Assembly (NCBI GenBank): GCA_963717145.1
Contig: OY970325.1
Span: 3,872,001-3,936,000 of the forward strand
Length of the DNA: 64,000 nt
Direction of reading: 5' to 3'
DNA from: an uncultured Armatimonadetes bacterium
GTDB lineage: Bacteria > Armatimonadota > UBA5829 > DTJY01
Below the pieces are notes generated by a model. That model was not told the DNA's origin. It did not search any database and worked only from the letters and a program-made list of their open reading frames with translations. This document shows, piece by piece, positions 1,141-17,258 of the stretch (position 1 is its first letter; every line of letters starts with the position of its first letter). Made by a program: the position numbers and the translations under genes.

Positions 1141-2507
1141 TATCCCTTCCAATCGCTCTGCTCGAATTCGGACCAGACGCGGCCGTAGACCTCGGCGGTC
1201 TGCTCGGCGATGTGCGTCCAGTTGAACACGTCGGTCACCTTCCTGTACGCATTCTCGACCATCATCTTCGCCGTGTACGGGTTCTTCAGCATCTGACTTA
1301 TCCCCCACGCCAGCGAGTCCGGATTGTCCGACCAGGCAGTGAGCCCGGCGACCCCGTGATCCACGACTTCCCGCAGGCCGCCCACGTCGGTCACGACAAC
1401 CGGAACCCTCGCCGCCATCGCCTCGAGCGCCACGATGCCGAACGGCTCGTAGAGGCTCGGGTAGACCGCCACGTCGATCACGCTGTAAAGCTTGACGAGT
1501 GTCTCGTCATCGATGTACCCGGTAAAGTATACCCGATCGTTCAGTCCGAGTTCGTTCACCCGCCGGATCAGATGGTCCTTGTTCCCGCCGCCGACGATCA
1601 CGAGCTTGCAGTCGTTGTACGCCTCGCGGATGATCGGGAGTGCCTCGATCAGGACCTGCACGCCCTTCTCGTGGACCATCCGCCCGACGAAGAAGATGAT
1701 CTTCTCCTCCGGCTTGGCAAAGTAGCTGCGGAATTCGGCCTTGTCGAACTCGATATCGAACTTCTCGGGGTTGATGCCGTTCGGGATCACGTCGATCTTG
1801 TCCGGCGGAACTTCGAGGACGCCGGCGATCTCTTCCTTCATGTAGTCGCTGCAGCAGATGACGCGCCACGACTCGAAGGCGAGTTCCCGCTCGATGTCGT
1901 GGATGTAACGCTGGAGGTCGGTATGGATCCCACTGTTGCGTCCGTGCTCGGTGGCATGGATCGTCGAGACGAGCGGGATGTGATGCTTGTGTTTGAGGTT
2001 CTTGCCGCAGAACTGGGTGAGCCAGTCGTGCGCGTGCAGGACCGTCGGCGAGTTACGGGGGACGGAGTGCAACTCCATCCCCAACCCCCGGGTGTTGTCA
2101 GGGACGGAGCCGGAATATGAGTTGGGGATGGAGTTGCACTCCGTCCCCCGCAGCTCGGTGTTGTTGGGGATGGAGTTGCACTCCGTCCCCCGCAGCTCGG
2201 TGTTGTTGGGGATGGAGTTGCACTCCGTCCCCCGTAACTCGCCCTCCAGCAACTCATCGACCCGTTTCTCGATCGAGACGTTCAGATTATGGATCGAGTG
2301 GACGAAATCGTCGCCGGGAGCGGCGGCCACCCGGTGGACGCGGAGGTTTCCGTCCTTCTCATCGGCGGGCGCATCCGGATGCTCGCAGGTGACGACTTCG
2401 ACCTCGACGCCGTTTGCCGCGAGCGCCTGGCTCAGGTCGTATACGTGCCTGGCGATCCCACCGACGATCTTCGGCGGGTACTCCCAGCTCAGCATCAGCA
2501 CGCGCAT
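1140..2507 (-). CDS. Glycosyltransferase family 4 (GT-B fold) with a ~66-aa in-frame repeat insertion
   Basis: [57 protein letters not shown] upstream of ATG 2507. Confidence 0.93.
2047..2243. repeat. Intragenic REP-like array: one inverted copy plus three tandem copies (42-bp period) of GTTGGGGATGGAGTTGCACTCCGTCCCCCG
   Basis: 2047-2085 is the exact reverse complement of 2205-2243 (39 bp); tandem units start at 2121, 2163 and 2205. Confidence 0.95.
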
Positions 2508-2584
2508 GCGTTTCTCCCTAACGTAGCCTGGCCCTTGATGGGCATTCTTGCGGTATGCGTGTCGGACGCCCATAAAGGGCCAGG

Positions 2585-3199
2585 CTACGGCTCTGTAGCG
2601 GGCTCACTTGGGACTCCCAACTGGCGATCCTCCCCGATCCGGCACACCGGGCATATCCCCTCCGGATCGTTCTGGAGCGCGCCGCACGACGAGCACTCCG
2701 TCCAGCCGCGCCCGGTCTTCCACTTCTCGACGCGGGCGGCGGTTTCCAGCAGGCGTCTCACCCTGTCCGCAAGATCAGGAGGAACAGACCGAGCGGTCTC
2801 CTCCAACTCCCCAAGTTCCGCGTCCGTGAGCCGAATCCCTCCAAGATCGACGGCTTCCTCATCGTCGGCCTCGGGAGCGAGTCCACGAGACCGCGAGACG
2901 CGGCCGACCTTGAAGATGATCTCCTTGATGACCTTGCCGCCGAGTCGCTTGTTCAGGCGCGACATGATGTCGGCCTTCATGAAGGTGAGTTCGTTCGCCC
3001 AGACCGGGCTCTTGGTCGTGACGAAGAGCTTGCCCTCGGTGATGAACTCGGGCTGGGCGGCGGCGGACACCTGCTTCCCGACGATCTCGTCCCACACGAG
3101 AAGCGCGGTCTGCTCCTTGATCTTGGCTTCGAGTTTGTGGGCCTTGAGCGAATCCCCGAGGAACTTGCCGAGGCCCTGCATGCCGGCATTGATTCTCAT
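2585..3199 (-). CDS. dciA: DciA/DUF721 family protein with C-terminal zinc ribbon
   Basis: WDEIVG..V..AQP..GKLFV..SPVWANEL..I..RLN..IKEIIFKVG; CSSC..CPVC; directly downstream of recF. Confidence 0.8.
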   Translation of the reverse strand: MRINAGMQGLGKFLGDSLKAHKLEAKIKEQTALLVWDEIVGKQVSAAAQPEFITEGKLFVTTKSPVWANELTFMKADIMSRLNKRLGGKVIKEIIFKVGRVSRSRGLAPEADDEEAVDLGGIRLTDAELGELEETARSVPPDLADRVRRLLETAARVEKWKTGRGWTECSSCGALQNDPEGICPVCRIGEDRQLGVPSEPATEP

Positions 3200-3210
3200 G
3201 TGGCGCCCTT

Positions 3211-3318
3211 TGGAGTGCGGAAGCGAAGTCTGCCGTAGGGGCGATCCTTCAACGGTCGCCCGTTACAGGACCGTTGGGCGACCGTTGAAGGATCGCCCCT
3301 ACGGCAGACTCCGCTTCC
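3211..3318. repeat. Composite hairpin: GTAG-type REP pair within a TGGAGTGCGGAAGC-type element, overlapping the recF 3' end
   Basis: GTAGGGGCGATCCTTCAACGGTCGCCC ... GGGCGACCGTTGAAGGATCGCCCCTAC, flanked by GGAAGCGAAGTCTGCC and GGCAGACTCCGCTTCC. Confidence 0.9.
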
Positions 3319-4422
3319 TCCACAACCATTCCCTTCCCGACCTTGAATACCTTTCCCTGTCTGACGAACTGCTCGTCGAAGAACTTGAGGCTCGTGGTGG
3401 TGGCGAATGTCTGGCAGCGACCGATAGTCAGCTCGAAAACGTGCGCCCGGCGATCCTCGTCCAGGTCGGTCATCACATCGTCCAGCAGCACGATCGGCGG
3501 CTCCTGGGCGGTCTCCTCCATCATCTCGAGTTCCGCCAGTCGCAGACTCAGCGCGACCGTCCGCTGCTGTCCCTGCGAGCCGTAGGTCCTGACATCCATA
3601 CCATTCGCCGTGAAGACCATGTCATCCCTCTGAGGGCCGACGAGCGTGACACCACGGCGCAGTTCCTCGGACCGGACCTCCCGCAATCTGTCCGCGGAAC
3701 CGCTCAGCGATCTCGGACGATTCGATCCTGCCGATGCTCGGCTTGTACTCGATGTCGAGGTTCTCCTCATCATCGGTGAGCTTCGAGTGGATCACCCTCG
3801 CCAGATCGGTCGCGCGCCTCAGGAATGCGAGCCGGCGTTCGAGGATCTGACTCCCGTAGAGCACGAGCTGCTCGTCCAGCACGTCTAGAACTCCATCGCA
3901 GGTTCCGCGCTGTGCGAGGTCGCGGAGAAGCTTGTTCCGCTGCTCCAAGACCTTTTTGTAGTTGACGAGGAGGTGGCAATACTGAGGCTGGAGTTGGCTG
4001 ATCTCCAGATTGAGGAACTTCCGGCGCTCCGATGGCTCGCCGGCGACGATCTCCGAGTCCTGAGGGCCGATGAAGAGCGCGTTTACCTGGCCGAGAAGGT
4101 CCGCGAGTCGGGTCTGTCGGATCGTATTGATCTTGACCTGCTTCTTCTCCGTGCGTCCGATGACGACCTCGACCTCGATGTCGTTCTGCTCCCGACGCGC
4201 GACATCACCGACGATGCGCATGAAGTCCGCATCCCACAGGATCAGCTCAGAGTCCTTCCCTGCGCGCCACGATCGGGCAGTCGCGAGGAGATAGATCGCC
4301 TCCAGGATGCTCGACTTCCCCTGCGCGTTCTTACCCACGAGTATGTTCAGGCCCTCACCGGGATGCAGGGTGAGTTCCGAATAGCATCTGAAGTTCTGAA
4401 TGCCGAGAGATCGAATATGCAT
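3249..4422 (-). CDS. recF: DNA replication/repair protein RecF; one apparent +1 frameshift at ~3693
   Basis: FRCY, GKNAQGKSSILEAI and ERRKFLN in one frame; TLVGPQRDD, YGSQGQQRT and LLDDVMTDLD in the next. Removing one G restores FRDRLREVR. Confidence 0.95.
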
Positions 4423-11371: not shown

Positions 11372-11449
11372 TGGGAGCATGGGAGTATGGGGGTATGGGA
11401 GAAGTACTCCCACACTCCCATACTCCCACACCCCCATACTCCATTCCCC
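11372..11449. repeat. Inverted octamer tandem array, (TGGGAGTA)n ... (TACTCCCA)n
   Basis: TGGGAGCATGGGAGTATGGGGGTATGGGAG followed by TACTCCCACACTCCCATACTCCCACACCCCCATACTCCA; fills the jag-mnmE spacer. Confidence 0.9.
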
Positions 11450-11450
11450 C

Positions 11451-13079
11451 ATGTTCATCGAGGAGACGATCTCAGCCATAGCCACACCGATCGGTGAGGG
11501 CGGAATCTCTGTCATTCGGATCAGCGGGCCGAATGCGATGCAGGTGGCTGCGCGAGTCTTCCAGACGGCTTCCGGGATGCCGCTCGATGCCTATCCCACC
11601 AATTCGGCTCACTATGGCGCCGTCGTCGGCCCCGAATACCGCGAGCGGATCGACGACGGCATCCTCACCATCTTCCGGGCCCCACACAGCTACACCGGCG
11701 AGGACTCCGTCGAGATAAGTTGTCACGGCGGCATGGTCCCCTCGCGCAACGTCCTCGAGGCGACTCTCCGCGCCGGCGCGCGTCTCGCCGAACCCGGCGA
11801 GTTTACCAAGCGCGCATTCCTCAACGGCCGGCTCGACCTCGTCCAGGCCGAGGCCGTTCTCGACATCATTCGCGCCCGGACCGACGAGTCGCTTCGGGTC
11901 GCCAGGCGTCAGATGGAGGGCGCTCTCTCCGCCCAGATCCGCGCGCTGAGGGAGGAACTGCTCGGCGTGATGGCCGGCATCGAGGCGGCGATCGACTTCC
12001 CGGAAGAGGTGGCCGAGGTGCCCTTCGAGTCGGTCGCCGCATCGCTCCACGACGCGATCAGCCACGTCTCCGGCCTGCTCGACACCGTCTCGTGCGGCAA
12101 GATCTATCGCGAGGGCATCCAGACAGTCATCGCCGGGCGGACGAATGTCGGGAAGTCGAGCCTCCTGAACGCGCTCGTCCGGGAGAGCCGCGCGATCGTG
12201 ACCCCGATCCCCGGCACGACTCGCGACCTGATCGAGGAGACGATCAACATCCGAGGCATTCCCGTGCGGACGATCGATACCGCCGGCATCAGGGCGACCT
12301 CCAGCGTCGTCGAGCAAGCCGGCATCGACCGCACGCGACGCACGATCGAGCAGGCCGACCTGATCCTCGCGATGCTCGACGCCTCGAAAGGGCTCTCCAA
12401 GGCCGAGAAGGACCTCCTTCTGAGCCTGTCACCCGGCTCGCCACCGGAAATGGAATCACACAGGCACAGACAACAAGGAGAAGATCACGGCCAATCCGGC
12501 ATTCCTCCGTGCCCTCCGTGCCTCCGTGGTTCAAACTCCGAGAGTGTCCCTGTTCCCCCCTCTCCCACTCCCGCCCTCCCCCCCTCGCCTTTGCCCCCTC
12601 TCCCCCTCTCCCCATCCTCCGCTCAGTGGCCGCCGCGCATCCGAGGTTCCGCATCCCGGCTGATCGTCGTGGTCAACAAGATCGACCTCCTGCGCCAGGA
12701 CGATGCCGAGGCGCTGCTCGAGAAGATCCGCGGATGGATCGGGAAGAACATCGCCGGCAACCCGCCCGTGATCGGGACCGCCGCGCCGTCGAACGAAGGG
12801 ATCAAGGAGCTTGAGGACCTCATCGTCGAGACTGTCATGTCCGGGGGAGTCGCCTGCGCCGAGGGAGCGGTCGTCTCGAACGTCCGGCACAGCCGCGCGC
12901 TCGAGGAAGCCCGGCTCTCGCTCCAGCACTGCCTCCGAACCGTCGCCTCGAACCTCCCGCTCGACTTCATCAGCATCGACCTCCGTGCCGCCGTCGACAC
13001 CCTCGGCCGCATCACCGGCGAGACCGCCACCGAAGACGTCATCGACCGCATCTTCTCCGACTTCTGCATCGGGAAGTAG
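11451..13079 (+). CDS. mnmE: tRNA modification GTPase MnmE with a ~75-aa insertion in the G domain
   Basis: TISAIATP.GEGGI.VIRISG, GEFTKRAFLNGRLDL, GRTNVGKSSLLN, PGTTRD, DTAG, NKID, FSDFCIGK. Confidence 0.97.
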   Translation: MFIEETISAIATPIGEGGISVIRISGPNAMQVAARVFQTASGMPLDAYPTNSAHYGAVVGPEYRERIDDGILTIFRAPHSYTGEDSVEISCHGGMVPSRNVLEATLRAGARLAEPGEFTKRAFLNGRLDLVQAEAVLDIIRARTDESLRVARRQMEGALSAQIRALREELLGVMAGIEAAIDFPEEVAEVPFESVAASLHDAISHVSGLLDTVSCGKIYREGIQTVIAGRTNVGKSSLLNALVRESRAIVTPIPGTTRDLIEETINIRGIPVRTIDTAGIRATSSVVEQAGIDRTRRTIEQADLILAMLDASKGLSKAEKDLLLSLSPGSPPEMESHRHRQQGEDHGQSGIPPCPPCLRGSNSESVPVPPSPTPALPPSPLPPLPLSPSSAQWPPRIRGSASRLIVVVNKIDLLRQDDAEALLEKIRGWIGKNIAGNPPVIGTAAPSNEGIKELEDLIVETVMSGGVACAEGAVVSNVRHSRALEEARLSLQHCLRTVASNLPLDFISIDLRAAVDTLGRITGETATEDVIDRIFSDFCIGK

Positions 13080-13273
13080 GTGGCCTGTGCGCCCCTGGAG
13101 TTGCACTCCCATTCCGTCCAGCAATGGAAAGTTGGGCAACCCGGGGAGATGAGAGTTGGGCTTAGGCATGGAGCGCATGTATGGGAGGACAATGGTGCTA
13201 GCCTGGTGAATGAACCACTGTCCATACGATCCACAATTGGTTATCAAGGATCATTCGCGTAAGGGGATGATGC

Positions 13274-14445
13274 ATGCGTATCTCCAGGAGAACTAGTGGT
13301 GGTAGGGGTGAGTACGAGATCAGTGGCGAGTTGCCAGGCGGCGAACAGCCCAGGGATTTGCTCGGTCGAATCATCTGTCTCGATCTTGGACTGGGGCAGA
13401 TCATCAACACGGGGGTGACTCTCAAAGAGCAAGGCGGCAAGATGCGCCTGAGAAAAGAGGACGCGCTCATGCAGGTACCCCGACAAGTCGCGGCGGTACT
13501 TCTCTTGCCAGACCCTGTTCGCGCTGACGAAGCGCTGGGAGCCGGTGCGCCGGTCATTCAGCGCAACAGGTATGCCATTGAGCATCTAATGGTGAATCGA
13601 GCCCTGTCCATCCCTCCTAACTTGGCCGTATTGCGCATACCATCTATCACTGTCGTAAACCGCTCTTATCAGGGAGAAGAGGTATCGGTCGTGGAGCGAG
13701 CGGCCCAGTTGCGGAACGTATGGCAGGAGAGTGACAAGTTCCCAGTCGAGATAGCGGATCTGTTGTCTGATCATCACCAACAGGTGGAAAGATCACAGAT
13801 GATCGGGCCTCCCGCTGAGTCGCTGGTCAGCGCCCTCCAGAGAAGTGTCAGCGAACGCAGCTCCGACCTTGGCATACTCTATAGCGAGGCCGGCGATGTG
13901 CTGCCCGCCCTTACCGAAGCACTTCACTTGGAGATCCCCCACCGTTGCTGGGATTCGAGGACATAGATATCGAAGACTTGGCTCTCAGACGCAGGACAGT
14001 GAAAGAGTGGAGAAGATGGGTGAATGCTCGAGGGCCCGCAAGCGCGCGATTTCGGCAGAGAGTGCGAAACGCCTATAGTGCGACGTGTTTGGTGTGCGGC
14101 GAACGCTTCCCGCCGACTCCGGTCAACCCAAGTCCTGGCGTTGACGCAGCTCACATCCTGCCTTGGAGGGAGTATGAACTCGACGATGTATGTAACGGAC
14201 TCTGCCTATGCAAGCTGCATCACTGGGCGTTCGATGAAGGCCTGATTCGTATCGACCATGCGGCTGGGCAGTACGAGACTATTGTGCTAGACGAGACCCG
14301 CGATATCGTGCTTCGCCACGACCCCAGTTTCAGCATGGATGTCTTGATACAGGCAACCGGTCCTATACCGCAGGACAGGTTGCCTGTAGACAGACGGCAG
14401 TGGCCTCGCCCAGACTTCCTTCAGGCCCTTGGGCAGTACCTCTAG
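13274..14445 (+). CDS. Putative HNH restriction endonuclease; one gene split by a one-base deletion in the C-run at ~13936-13940
   Basis: Adding one C joins EIP to PLLGFEDID. C-terminal CLVC..DAAHILPW..NGLCLCKLHHWAFD; convergent with a C5 MTase. Confidence 0.8.
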
Positions 14446-15403
14446 CCTCTGGACCGTGCTGTATCTCGCCATTCATATACTTGGCTATTCGCGATCCGAG
14501 CCACTCCGCTACCGATACTGTCACCGCGTTCCCGATCGCGTGGTAACGGAGAGTGTCGAGTTGTGCGGCGTCCATGATGGGGGCCTCTGGTATGGTCCAG
14601 CCTACGGGAAAGCCCTGTATCCCCTCGCACTCCCTTGGCGTGAGGCGACGTACTCTACCATCGGGATATGTTACATATGTGCGGCTCCAGTCCGTCCCGG
14701 TGTGACGGGCTGAGCATGCATATAGGCAGTAAGCTACCCGTTGAACTATGGGCCCTTTGACAGAATCTCCAAGGCTTTCCTTAAAGGGGGAAACAGAGAT
14801 CTCCCCATCTCGTCCGTTCTTCTCAGCATGCCTCTTGCTGCATTCGGGCTCAAAAAGTATGTCTCCGGGACCTCTCCAGTCTCGATGACATCCAACAATG
14901 TAGACTCTCTTACGTGACTGGGGCACTCCGAAGTCCTTGCTGTTAAGCACACGCCACCCCACGCCATACCCGAGGTTGGCCAGTGTGCGAACGACGACTC
15001 CGAAATCCCGTCCTCCGTGGCTAGAGAGCAGACCTGGAACATTCTCGATGACGAAAACTCTGGGACGGCCCTCTCCAAGAAGTCTAGCAAAGTCATGAAA
15101 GAGTCCAGATCTGGCCCCTCCAAGCCCTGCTCGTGGGCCCATTCGTGCAAGTGAGACGTCTTGGCAGGGGAATCCTCCAACCCACACATCTGAAACAGGG
15201 ATAGCTGCATTGGTGACCTCCTTGATATTGCGCGCGAAAGGCACATCAGGCCAATGACGCCTAAGGACTTGTTGGCAGAAGGTATCGATCTCGCACTGCA
15301 AGCTGACCGTGAAGCCAGCCCTCTCAAACCCCAGGTCCAGTCCCCCTATGCCCGAGAAGAAAGATGCCACCCGCCATCTGTTAGTGGGAGGATTCATACT
15401 CAC
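14363..15403 (-). CDS. DNA (cytosine-5) methyltransferase (alpha frame)
   Basis: FFSGIGG (I), GGFPCQ (IV), ENV (VI), QSRKRVYIVG (VIII), RRLTPRECEGIQGFP, AIGNAV (X). Confidence 0.96.
   Translation of the reverse strand: MSMNPPTNRWRVASFFSGIGGLDLGFERAGFTVSLQCEIDTFCQQVLRRHWPDVPFARNIKEVTNAAIPVSDVWVGGFPCQDVSLARMGPRAGLGGARSGLFHDFARLLGEGRPRVFVIENVPGLLSSHGGRDFGVVVRTLANLGYGVGWRVLNSKDFGVPQSRKRVYIVGCHRDWRGPGDILFEPECSKRHAEKNGRDGEISVSPFKESLGDSVKGPIVQRVAYCLYACSARHTGTDWSRTYVTYPDGRVRRLTPRECEGIQGFPVGWTIPEAPIMDAAQLDTLRYHAIGNAVTVSVAEWLGSRIAKYMNGEIQHGPEARGTAQGPEGSLGEATAVCLQATCPAV
14746..15210 (-). CDS. Nested alternative-frame ORF (154 aa), M.EcoHK31I beta-polypeptide-like
   Basis: AAGGAGGT 5 nt before ATG 15210; lies entirely inside the MTase gene in another frame; ends STLLDVIETGEVPETYFLSPNAARGMLRR..LFPPLRKALE. 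Confidence 0.75.
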   Translation of the reverse strand: MQLSLFQMCGLEDSPAKTSHLHEWAHEQGLEGPDLDSFMTLLDFLERAVPEFSSSRMFQVCSLATEDGISESSFAHWPTSGMAWGGVCLTARTSECPSHVRESTLLDVIETGEVPETYFLSPNAARGMLRRTDEMGRSLFPPLRKALEILSKGP

Positions 15404-15809
15404 CCCTTATTTGAGTCTCCAAGCGGTGCAGCAACGCATTAGCATCAGATATCTCGCACTCCCATACCACAACAGGTTTCCAGTTGATCGCCTGTAAGGC
15501 GGCTAGGTTTGCCACATCCCTTGATCTGACCCTGTCGAGCTTTCGGTTCCAGTAGTCCGTATTGCTCTTGGGACGCCGTCCGTCTCTACACTCATCATGT
15601 CCATGCCAGAAACACCCATGGACAAACACAGCCGCCTTGTAGCGCGGCAACACGATATCGGGTTTGCCCGGTAATGACTTTCCATGCAGACGGAATCTGA
15701 ACCCAGCGTTATGCAGGAGTCTGCGAACGGCCATCTCTGGCTGGGTATTGACCGATCTTATCCTCCCCATTATCCTGCTGCGTTGTTCGGGAGTGAAGGT
15801 ATCTGTCAT
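15381..15809 (-). CDS. vsr: Very short patch repair endonuclease
   Basis: MTDTFTPEQRSRIMGRIRSVNTQPE, LPGKPDIV, FVHGCFWHGH, YWNRKL, VVWEC. Confidence 0.96.
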   Translation of the reverse strand: MTDTFTPEQRSRIMGRIRSVNTQPEMAVRRLLHNAGFRFRLHGKSLPGKPDIVLPRYKAAVFVHGCFWHGHDECRDGRRPKSNTDYWNRKLDRVRSRDVANLAALQAINWKPVVVWECEISDANALLHRLETQIRGEYESSH

Positions 15810-15973
15810 TCTTCTGCTGTTCTTTCTGGTGGCTACCACGGACTGACCGGAGACAAGGTGTACGGGGTCCCGCATTATTGCGACACGATCCGCAGGCGTA
15901 CGCCAGATCCCCGCGGCCACCCACTGGAAGTATAGCTCAGTGTCCGCAGGTTTGCAAGACATCTTCTCCCGGA

Positions 15974-16002
15974 AAAATGGGGACAGGCACAATACTTACA
16001 GT
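15974..16002. repeat. GGGACAGGCAC-type repeat arm
   Basis: GGGACAGGCACAATACTTACAGT; near-identical at ~32685-32707; paired copy at 61925-62009. Confidence 0.75.
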
Positions 16003-16090
16003 ATCGCCAACATTCCGACTCGATATCGTCACGGGTAGCCTCCCTATGGAACTCCGGCAGGAGGCGATTTCTTAGGCGGCTGCAAATGGG

Positions 16091-16137
16091 CAACTTCTGT
16101 GGAGGTGGGTCATCCCGGCCCGCCTCCACAGAAGTTG
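16091..16137. repeat. Hairpin downstream of the UroD-family gene (REP-like, possibly a terminator)
   Basis: CAACTTCTGTGGAGG ... CCTCCACAGAAGTTG; a related half copy CCCGCCTCCCACAGAAGT at ~46811-46828. Confidence 0.7.
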
Positions 16138-16151
16138 TGCAGGGCTGTACC

Positions 16152-17258
16152 CTACCTGTGATCCATCTCACACACCCGGCGGCGGTAGTGGAGGTAGTTC
16201 TCGAAGCTGACCTCGATCGGGACGCCATGATCGCAGGTCGGGTAGTATCCTCCGCGCTCGACCATCGCCGGCATGATGTGCGCCAGCATCGAGTCGATCG
16301 CGTCCTTCCCCGCCGCGAGCACCCGCTTGTCGATCCCGCCGGACATCATCAGGTCCGGGTACTGCCTGCCGATCTCGACCACGTCGCACCCGCTCGCGAC
16401 CTCGAACGGCGACATCCGCGTCATCCCTAGCTCCAGATAGAGCGGGATCGCGGGCCGGCAGTCACCGTCGGTATCGATGTGCAGCCAGATCGAGCGCCCC
16501 TGCCTCGACCGCGCGTTGCCGATTAGCTGCTGGTAGTAAGGCATGAGGAACTCGCGGAACGTGTCTGGCGAGATGAGCAGCCCGTGGTTGTAGCAGATGT
16601 CCTCCGCCATGAAGATCTCATCGATCTCCGCCACCGCCTGAACCCTCGCCAGCCCGGCGTCCATGATGTCGAGCCATCCCTGCATCGCCGCGTGGATGAC
16701 CTCCGGCATGTCATAGAAGGCAAAGAGAAGGTCCTCCGGGCCGATGATCGAGCGCAGATACATGTACCCGCCGATCAGATACTGGCTCATGATGCCGTTC
16801 ACCGAGTCCGTCGTCCGCCGCGCATCCGTGACCCGGTCCGCGAGGCCCTCCCATCGCGACTCGACCGTCGGATCGAGCCTCGGAGCGACGGCCTCCCAGT
16901 CGGCCATGTTGCTGACGGCATGCTTCAGGTAGTCGGGCATGAACCCGTGCCGCCTGCCCTTGAAGACCTTCAGGTGCCGGCCGGCGACGTCCTGGATGAT
17001 CTCGTGGTCGCCGATGACCTCGATCACCTTGGCCTCGAACGGCGGGAGGAACGGCGGCTCGCACCATCCGAGGCCGAGGCCGGAGCCGAAGATCGCCTGG
17101 GGGTCGTACATGAAGAGGTTCGTCTCCTGCCAGTCCTCCGGCAGTCCCTCGCCCTTCCATCGCTCGATCGCTTCCGGCCAGATCGAGAACTCCGCGCGGT
17201 GGAGATGGTCCACCGGCCGGAATTCATACGTCGCCCGCATCCGCTCGCCTGGGGTCAT
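16152..17258 (-). CDS. Uroporphyrinogen decarboxylase / methyltransferase superfamily protein
   Basis: [48 protein letters not shown]. Confidence 0.85.

Follow-up and report, generated by a model that had tools for sequence, protein, structure and literature searches.

The methyltransferase M.EcoHK31I recognizes the site YGGCCR and is made up of two polypeptides, α and β. In the portions of the published accounts available to us (PMC2836561, PMC3404938), its β polypeptide lies wholly in another frame of the α gene, and both are needed for methylation. The same portions describe that alternative internal Met codons can start β and that N-terminal deletions of β reduce the activity but do not abolish it. 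[quoted passage not shown] M.AquI was the only other natural two-polypeptide C5 methyltransferase in the literature searched, a search that had REBASE and most subscription journals outside its scope. In the available part of PMC3404938, M.AquI has its break in the variable region. It thus resembles the system described here as a natural two-polypeptide enzyme but differs in having a simple break, with motifs I–VIII on α and IX–X on β, and no long dual-coding overlap. The same part of PMC3404938 reports that M.HhaI, M.SssI, and M.BspRI tolerate a break in the variable region and can assemble their fold from the resulting polypeptides, although these splits are artificial, unlike the natural α and β considered here.

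The locus lies in a 64 000-nucleotide stretch of DNA from an uncultured Armatimonadetes bacterium, which we refer to as the window. The features discussed below are as follows.

14363..15397, minus strand: α, C5 cytosine DNA methyltransferase CDS, 344 aa plus stop (PF00145, TIGR00675).
14746..15210, minus strand: β, overlapping CDS of 154 codons in frame +1 of α, over α residues 63–217.
15216..15223, minus strand: Shine–Dalgarno sequence AAGGAGGT, 5 nt before the β ATG; K59-E60-V61 in the α frame.
14749..14913, minus strand: C-terminal domain of β, residues ~100–154 (LxDVIET..VP..YFLSPNAA.G.LRR....GR.LFPPLR..LE), conserved independently of α.
15381..15809, minus strand: Vsr very-short-patch repair endonuclease (PF03852, 1.5e-32); its stop overlaps the α start by 17 nt.
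13274..14445, plus strand: HNH restriction endonuclease, convergent with α (HNH_2, PF13391, 3.8e-12), in two frames.

The α gene runs on the minus strand from ATG at 15397–15395 to the stop at 14365–14363. Its product matches PF00145 (5e-60, 204 bits against a cut-off of 22) and TIGR00675 (1.8e-63, 215 bits against a cut-off of 100.65) and shows motifs I (FSGIGG), IV (GFPCQ), VI (ENV), VIII (QSRKR), IX (RRLTPRECEGIQGFP), and X (GNAV). The alignment to α covers residues 13–173 and 255–323 of M.HhaI, so motifs I–VIII and IX–X are present, and all ten C5 methyltransferase motifs, including a clear motif IX, are found on α. Residues F76-P77-C78-Q79, E118-N119-V120, and Q160/R162/R164 are invariant among 45 sequences. 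With profile scores above the curated cut-offs and the PCQ, ENV, and QxRxR elements in place, α is a C5 cytosine methyltransferase. A preliminary description of this DNA had noted motif IX/X-like segments in α and a short variable region. Motifs IX and X are indeed present, but the shortness is only moderate, as the variable stretch left unaligned has ~61 residues, compared with 82 in M.HhaI. A motif division of the M.AquI type is ruled out here, since α alone has the ten motifs. With these motifs and a size close to that of M.HhaI, α might, to judge from its sequence, act without β.

The inner ORF is preceded on the minus strand by AAGGAGGT at 15223–15216 and a spacer at 15215–15211. It begins with ATG at 15210–15208 and ends with TAG at 14748–14746. 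Rereading of the sequence and its translation reproduced exactly the earlier statement that AAGGAGGT-N5-ATG (15223–15208) opens a 154-codon ORF inside the methyltransferase CDS. The product has 154 residues and ends in ...STLLDVIETGEVPETYFLSPNAARGMLRRTDEMGRSLFPPLRKALEILSKGP; its reading frame lies wholly within the α CDS on the same strand, in frame +1, at an offset of 187 nt. A mechanical ORF list starts this frame further upstream, at TTG 15327, to give 193 aa; we have taken the ATG at 15210 as the start because the relatives place the start there. No significant family was found for β in Pfam, in NCBIfam, or among PDB sequences. It contains no canonical C5 methyltransferase motif and has no PF00145 match, and its sole match in the family searches was to phrog_16143, 'DNA methyltransferase' (1.7e-8).

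The inner same-strand gene in another frame, 14746–15210 within 14363–15397, is the likeness to M.EcoHK31I. The difference, as far as the available portions of the M.EcoHK31I accounts go, is that motif IX is here on α, aligned to M.HhaI 255–323, and not on β. Since the layout is the same and the motif distribution is not, and since the comparison rests on published descriptions of layout and motifs, we regard the present locus as a variant of that kind rather than a proven member of the family. A blastn search of α against complete E. coli genomes, directed at an M.EcoHK31I-like copy, gave no match.

For comparison, 79 loci with relatives of α were taken from species-representative genomes, 52 of them with 50–76% identity to α (L001–L052) and 27 with 26–40% (L053–L079). 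Among the close loci, 49 contain a methyltransferase ORF with FPCQ, and L044, L047, and L051 gave none. In 46 of these 49 genes, as in the window gene, the +1 frame runs without a stop for 152 codons or more over the same region; in the other three, L048, L049, and L050, the internal +1 frame is closed. The longest ORF in the +2 frame over the overlap region among the close relatives is 49 codons. In the distant FPCQ methyltransferases, the +1 frame is open for just 3–43 codons in 15 of 16. The exception, L055 (37% identity), has unusually long open stretches in both frames, 266 codons in +1 and 133 in +2, which sets it apart from the remaining 15 distant controls.

An open frame of this kind could arise by chance in a moderately GC-rich gene, with its apparent conservation imposed by α. 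The α gene does have a GC content of 56%, and the N-terminal two thirds of β follow the conserved motifs of α. The synonymous codons of each of the 47 β-bearing genes were therefore shuffled within the gene, 2000 times per gene, as a null model. The shuffled genes have a mean of 3.6 stops in the +1 frame over the β span, whereas the natural genes have none in 45 of 47, and the remaining two have one stop each, at the edge of the fixed span. The control in the +2 frame gave 8.15 stops observed and 8.16 shuffled. For the window gene, the 2000 shuffles gave a mean of 4.81 stops in the β frame and zero stops in 0.15% of cases, compared with zero observed. Stops in the β frame of close homologues, for which the earlier account had proposed a check, are thus absent from 45 of the 47 genes. 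The frame is also open in genes of 43–48% GC, and the β-bearing genes are spread over many phyla. By these counts, the β ORF is not a chance open frame. Together with the codon periodicity and the in-frame fusions described below, the shuffles, the +2 control, and the retention of the ORF at 43–48% GC make a chance origin highly improbable.

The 47 genes were aligned by codon, and the mean pairwise identity was obtained for each codon position. The identity at the third position of α codons is 0.26–0.39 outside the overlap and 0.44–0.85 within α residues 58–222. The reduced synonymous variation in α that had been suggested as a check over 14746–15210 thus takes the form of a strong suppression across exactly that span. 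At α residues 178–207, position 3 is more conserved than position 1 (0.85/0.79 compared with 0.60/0.50), a periodicity to be expected from a stronger constraint on the +1 frame than on the α frame. In amino-acid identity, β residues 122–143 reach 0.77/0.69, while α has 0.37/0.44 there. Upstream, α is more conserved than β, for example, 0.92 compared with 0.50 at motif IV. Since α dominates upstream and β at residues 122–143, independent selection acts on the C-terminal ~55 residues of β. For β residues 1–100, the constraint on motifs IV–VIII of α appears largely to explain the conservation. The dispensable N-terminal residues of M.EcoHK31I β, as described in the available portions of those accounts, fit the weakly constrained N terminus of β here.

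The start of β is at a conserved place in 42 of the 47 genes, with ATG in 40 and GTG in 2, situated 38, 35, or 32 nt ahead of the codon for F in FPCQ; the other five genes have no start codon at this site. Directly upstream of the start there is an in-frame stop in 27 of the 42 genes. A Shine–Dalgarno-like tetramer occurs at −17 to −4 in 28 of the 42, compared with 15.5% of other positions in the same genes. It is missing from 14, including the Bacteroidota genes and several from Betaproteobacteria. The α residues E60 and V61, whose codons contribute to the Shine–Dalgarno sequence, are common in the β-bearing clade and absent from three fused sister genes. Both the ATG and the Shine–Dalgarno sequence, which the preliminary description had asked to be sought in homologues, are accordingly found again, the start in 42 of 47 and the tetramer in 28 of 42.

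The conserved start bears on the possibility that the β frame is entered by ribosomal frameshifting from α, to give fusion proteins and no free small subunit. The database proteins P0099 and P0152 change between the α and β frames in midsequence, and P0152 also changes back. Their passage from the α frame into the β frame is what frameshifting would give, and a phage relative has its motifs spread over two frames. However, the two chimeras are single records, and their frame changes are probably assembly indels or frameshift-correcting gene calls, which is the simpler explanation. An α(I–VIII)-β fusion made in this way would be without motifs IX and X, and an ATG and a Shine–Dalgarno sequence are conserved at the head of the ORF. 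Furthermore, M.EcoHK31I β expressed separately complements α, according to the available part of PMC2836561. We therefore consider frameshifting quite improbable.

The three close relatives with a closed +1 frame have the domain elsewhere. L048 (Brevibacterium aurantiacum), L049 (Vibrio bivalvicida), and L050 (Erythrobacter sp.) are ~50% identical to α. With lengths of 497, 427, and 442 aa, respectively, they carry a β-like domain in frame behind motif X. They thus resemble α with the C-terminal domain of β added, but differ in having the domain in frame and the +1 frame closed. An hhalign comparison of the β alignment with the L049 tail gave 98.5% probability (E 2e-15) over β residues 73–154, and the fused relatives have no counterpart of the first 36 β residues. 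A region-restricted search found 12 further fused proteins (P0286–P0297). The AlphaFold2 model of the L049 fusion has a mean pLDDT of 87.8 and a pTM of 0.90, and in its C-terminal domain the block means of pLDDT are 87–95 across most of residues 340–420. All matches of the fused model in a Foldseek search were ordinary C5 methyltransferases, M.HhaI (5e-22) among them, with no aligned ranges given. The occurrence of the same domain in frame in one lineage and in the +1 frame in another is hard to explain without translation of the +1 frame.

A different layout was found on a viral contig, L080. At 2501–3480, motif I, a β-like region, a low-complexity linker, and motif IX share one 311-aa ORF. 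A 97-aa ORF in another frame contains motifs IV–VIII and ends right after VIII, and an 88-aa ORF contains motif X. P0217, P0279, P0253, and P0272 were grouped with this layout, and in P0217, P0279, and P0253 motif I, the β-like region, and motif IX share one frame. We rejected the interpretation of these motif I-β-motif IX proteins as fusion enzymes, as the L080 DNA has motifs IV–VIII and X in another frame. The three-frame layout could represent three subunits, frameshifting, or decay.

The α and β polypeptides were modeled together, as the earlier account had proposed. The predicted complex scored 0.83 (runs 0.84, 0.81, and 0.83), while the best of three controls scored 0.00. Of 157 solved complexes, 116 attain that mark, as do just 2 of 215 mismatched pairs, a calibration that holds only roughly here, the input being our own alignments A2 and A3 with 45 rows each. 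The rows of A2 and A3 derive from the same DNA, which gives trivial co-variation, but the overlap offset of 62–63 is not where the best contacts fall. The three runs share at least 65% of their contacts, and the partner pLDDT is at least 69; with an unrelated partner, the pLDDT of β dropped to 53. In the predicted interface, β residues 37–150 contact α residues 121–165 (motifs VI–VIII), 174–222 (variable region), and 236–260, the last of which takes in motif IX and the final part of the variable region. Predicted contacts are closest between β 77–83 and α 124, 132, and 146–150, and between β 118–120 and α 248–253. Residues 1–36 of β make no confident contact with α in the model.

We consider it likely that this is a dual-coding gene, in which α and a separately translated β, completing the target-recognition domain, form an α-β heterodimer. 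In the mechanism that we propose, one mRNA would give α from frame 0 and β from frame +1 by independent initiation, with β translated from its own Shine–Dalgarno sequence and the ATG at 15210. The C-terminal ~90 residues of β would pack on α beside motifs VI–VIII, the shortened variable region, and motif IX. There, β may complete the small domain, the one responsible for target recognition, and the working enzyme would be the α-β heterodimer. The first ~40–60 residues of β, encoded over motifs IV–VI of α, are probably a weakly constrained leader. The open frame, the start, the synonymous suppression, and the predicted complex support the two-polypeptide reading of the preliminary description. 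From them, we infer the separate translation of β, its binding to α, its role in DNA recognition or activity, and the need for it in catalysis.

Of the 79 loci searched, 33 have a Vsr gene close to the methyltransferase. The HNH gene of the window is in two frames, 13274–13966 and 13945–14445, with a frameshift at a C5 run at 13936–13940, and in 41 of 44 related loci it is one intact ORF of ~380–390 aa. A type II restriction–modification system with Vsr has an intact adjacent endonuclease, and in the window the HNH gene is frameshifted. The frameshift could be due to inactivation, phase variation at the homopolymer, or sequencing error. The α and HNH genes converge, and their 3′ ends share 83 nt in the window (14363–14445) and likewise in L001 (3935–4017). 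The region 13200–16200 has a GC content of 54–58%, compared with 62–70% in the flanks, which suggests that the block of Vsr, methyltransferase, and nuclease is a horizontally acquired restriction–modification island. Upstream, a 566-aa ORF at 11379–13079 on the plus strand contains a Pro/Ser-rich low-complexity stretch of ~80 residues (…SPGSPPEMESH…PPSPLPPLPLSPSS…), the flanking sequence of which presumably resembles the tRNA-modification GTPase MnmE.

It is conceivable that β is real and selected yet dispensable for catalysis, and serves as a modulator of specificity or activity or couples α to Vsr or the HNH nuclease. The ten motifs are all on α, the nuclease is always at the locus, and Vsr is often there. 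However, in the sister genes the methyltransferase itself carries the domain as a fusion, and phage methyltransferase genes also contain it in stretches where no nuclease of this kind is annotated. The predicted interface would place β on the small-domain region of α. We regard a dispensable β as unlikely, though less so than frameshifting.

The heterodimer reading would apply well beyond this locus if the domain has the same role elsewhere. Gene callers had been expected to miss such a two-polypeptide methyltransferase, which is partly true. For β, 153 homologous ORFs of similar length were called, but the expectation holds for their annotation, as nearly all are unnamed or 'hypothetical protein', and two are named methyltransferase. 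Cluster representatives of β number 1748 at E ≤ 1e-3 and 321 at E ≤ 1e-10. EDSPAKTS, the +1 reading of GFPCQDVS, occurs in many diverse representatives, which therefore overlap motif IV as well. Matches to the C-terminal domain of β lie under annotated methyltransferase genes in 315 plasmid and 128 phage records, and in the phage records listed, only dmt, dam, or methylase is named beneath the match. A P1-like E. coli plasmid (L160, 2225–2713) carries in the +1 frame of dmt an ORF of 162 codons, with an hhalign probability of 98.3% to the β domain, and phage P1 itself (NC_005856.1, 66713–67198) has the same ORF with 99.4% identity. In every one of the five records inspected, the match lies in frame +1 relative to the annotated CDS, and the inner ORF is left unannotated. 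An ATG-started ORF of 131–162 codons is present in four of them, the P1-like plasmid, mycobacteriophage Omega gp127, Caulobacter phage BL94, and Streptococcus phage Javan105. In the fifth, CobraSix, there is a stop near the start of the match and no clean inner ORF. Phage P1 Dmt, Omega, BL94, and Javan105 are alike in a +1 ORF that ends 30–60 codons beyond motif VIII and has the same C-terminal domain, but their α genes are just distantly related to that of the window.

The plasmid matches H1–H30, from the Bacillus cereus group, Clostridioides difficile, and Enterococcus, cover β residues 2–135 at 31–34% identity and fall under dcm genes of low-GC plasmids. In the available part of PMC4722110, the specificity predicted for a B. 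anthracis prophage methyltransferase is that of M.EaeI/EagI. Taken with the low-GC plasmid matches, that part of PMC4722110 is an indirect hint of a link between the β-bearing genes and the M.EcoHK31I/EaeI group.

The literature searched, with REBASE and most subscription journals outside its scope, gave no report of a widespread β family or of the inner ORF of P1 dmt. The inner-gene arrangement has been proven once before, for M.EcoHK31I, and is apparently far commoner than annotated. On balance, we lean slightly toward the view that β represents a very large family of genes, almost entirely without annotation, that overlap the C5 methyltransferase genes of bacteria and phages on the same strand, including those of P1 (dmt) and Omega. 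In bacteria, few long overlaps between genes on one strand have solid evolutionary support, and annotation pipelines do not permit them. In β, we have a long overlapping gene with a clear functional rationale that is directly testable.

If this view is correct, many enzymes taken to be monomeric would be obligate heterodimers, with a target-recognition domain partly encoded in a second frame. The domain would also have shifted its frame and position in evolution, as an internal +1 gene, a C-terminal fusion, and part of the three-frame phage layout. If β is needed, the annotated CDS would still work, as β rides along with it, but codon-optimized genes would lose β and could fail. Prediction of specificity from α only would then be incomplete, and studies of the methylome or host range of P1-type phages may overlook a subunit. 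The overlapped, fused, and three-frame members provide a natural series for the evolution of dual-coding regions.
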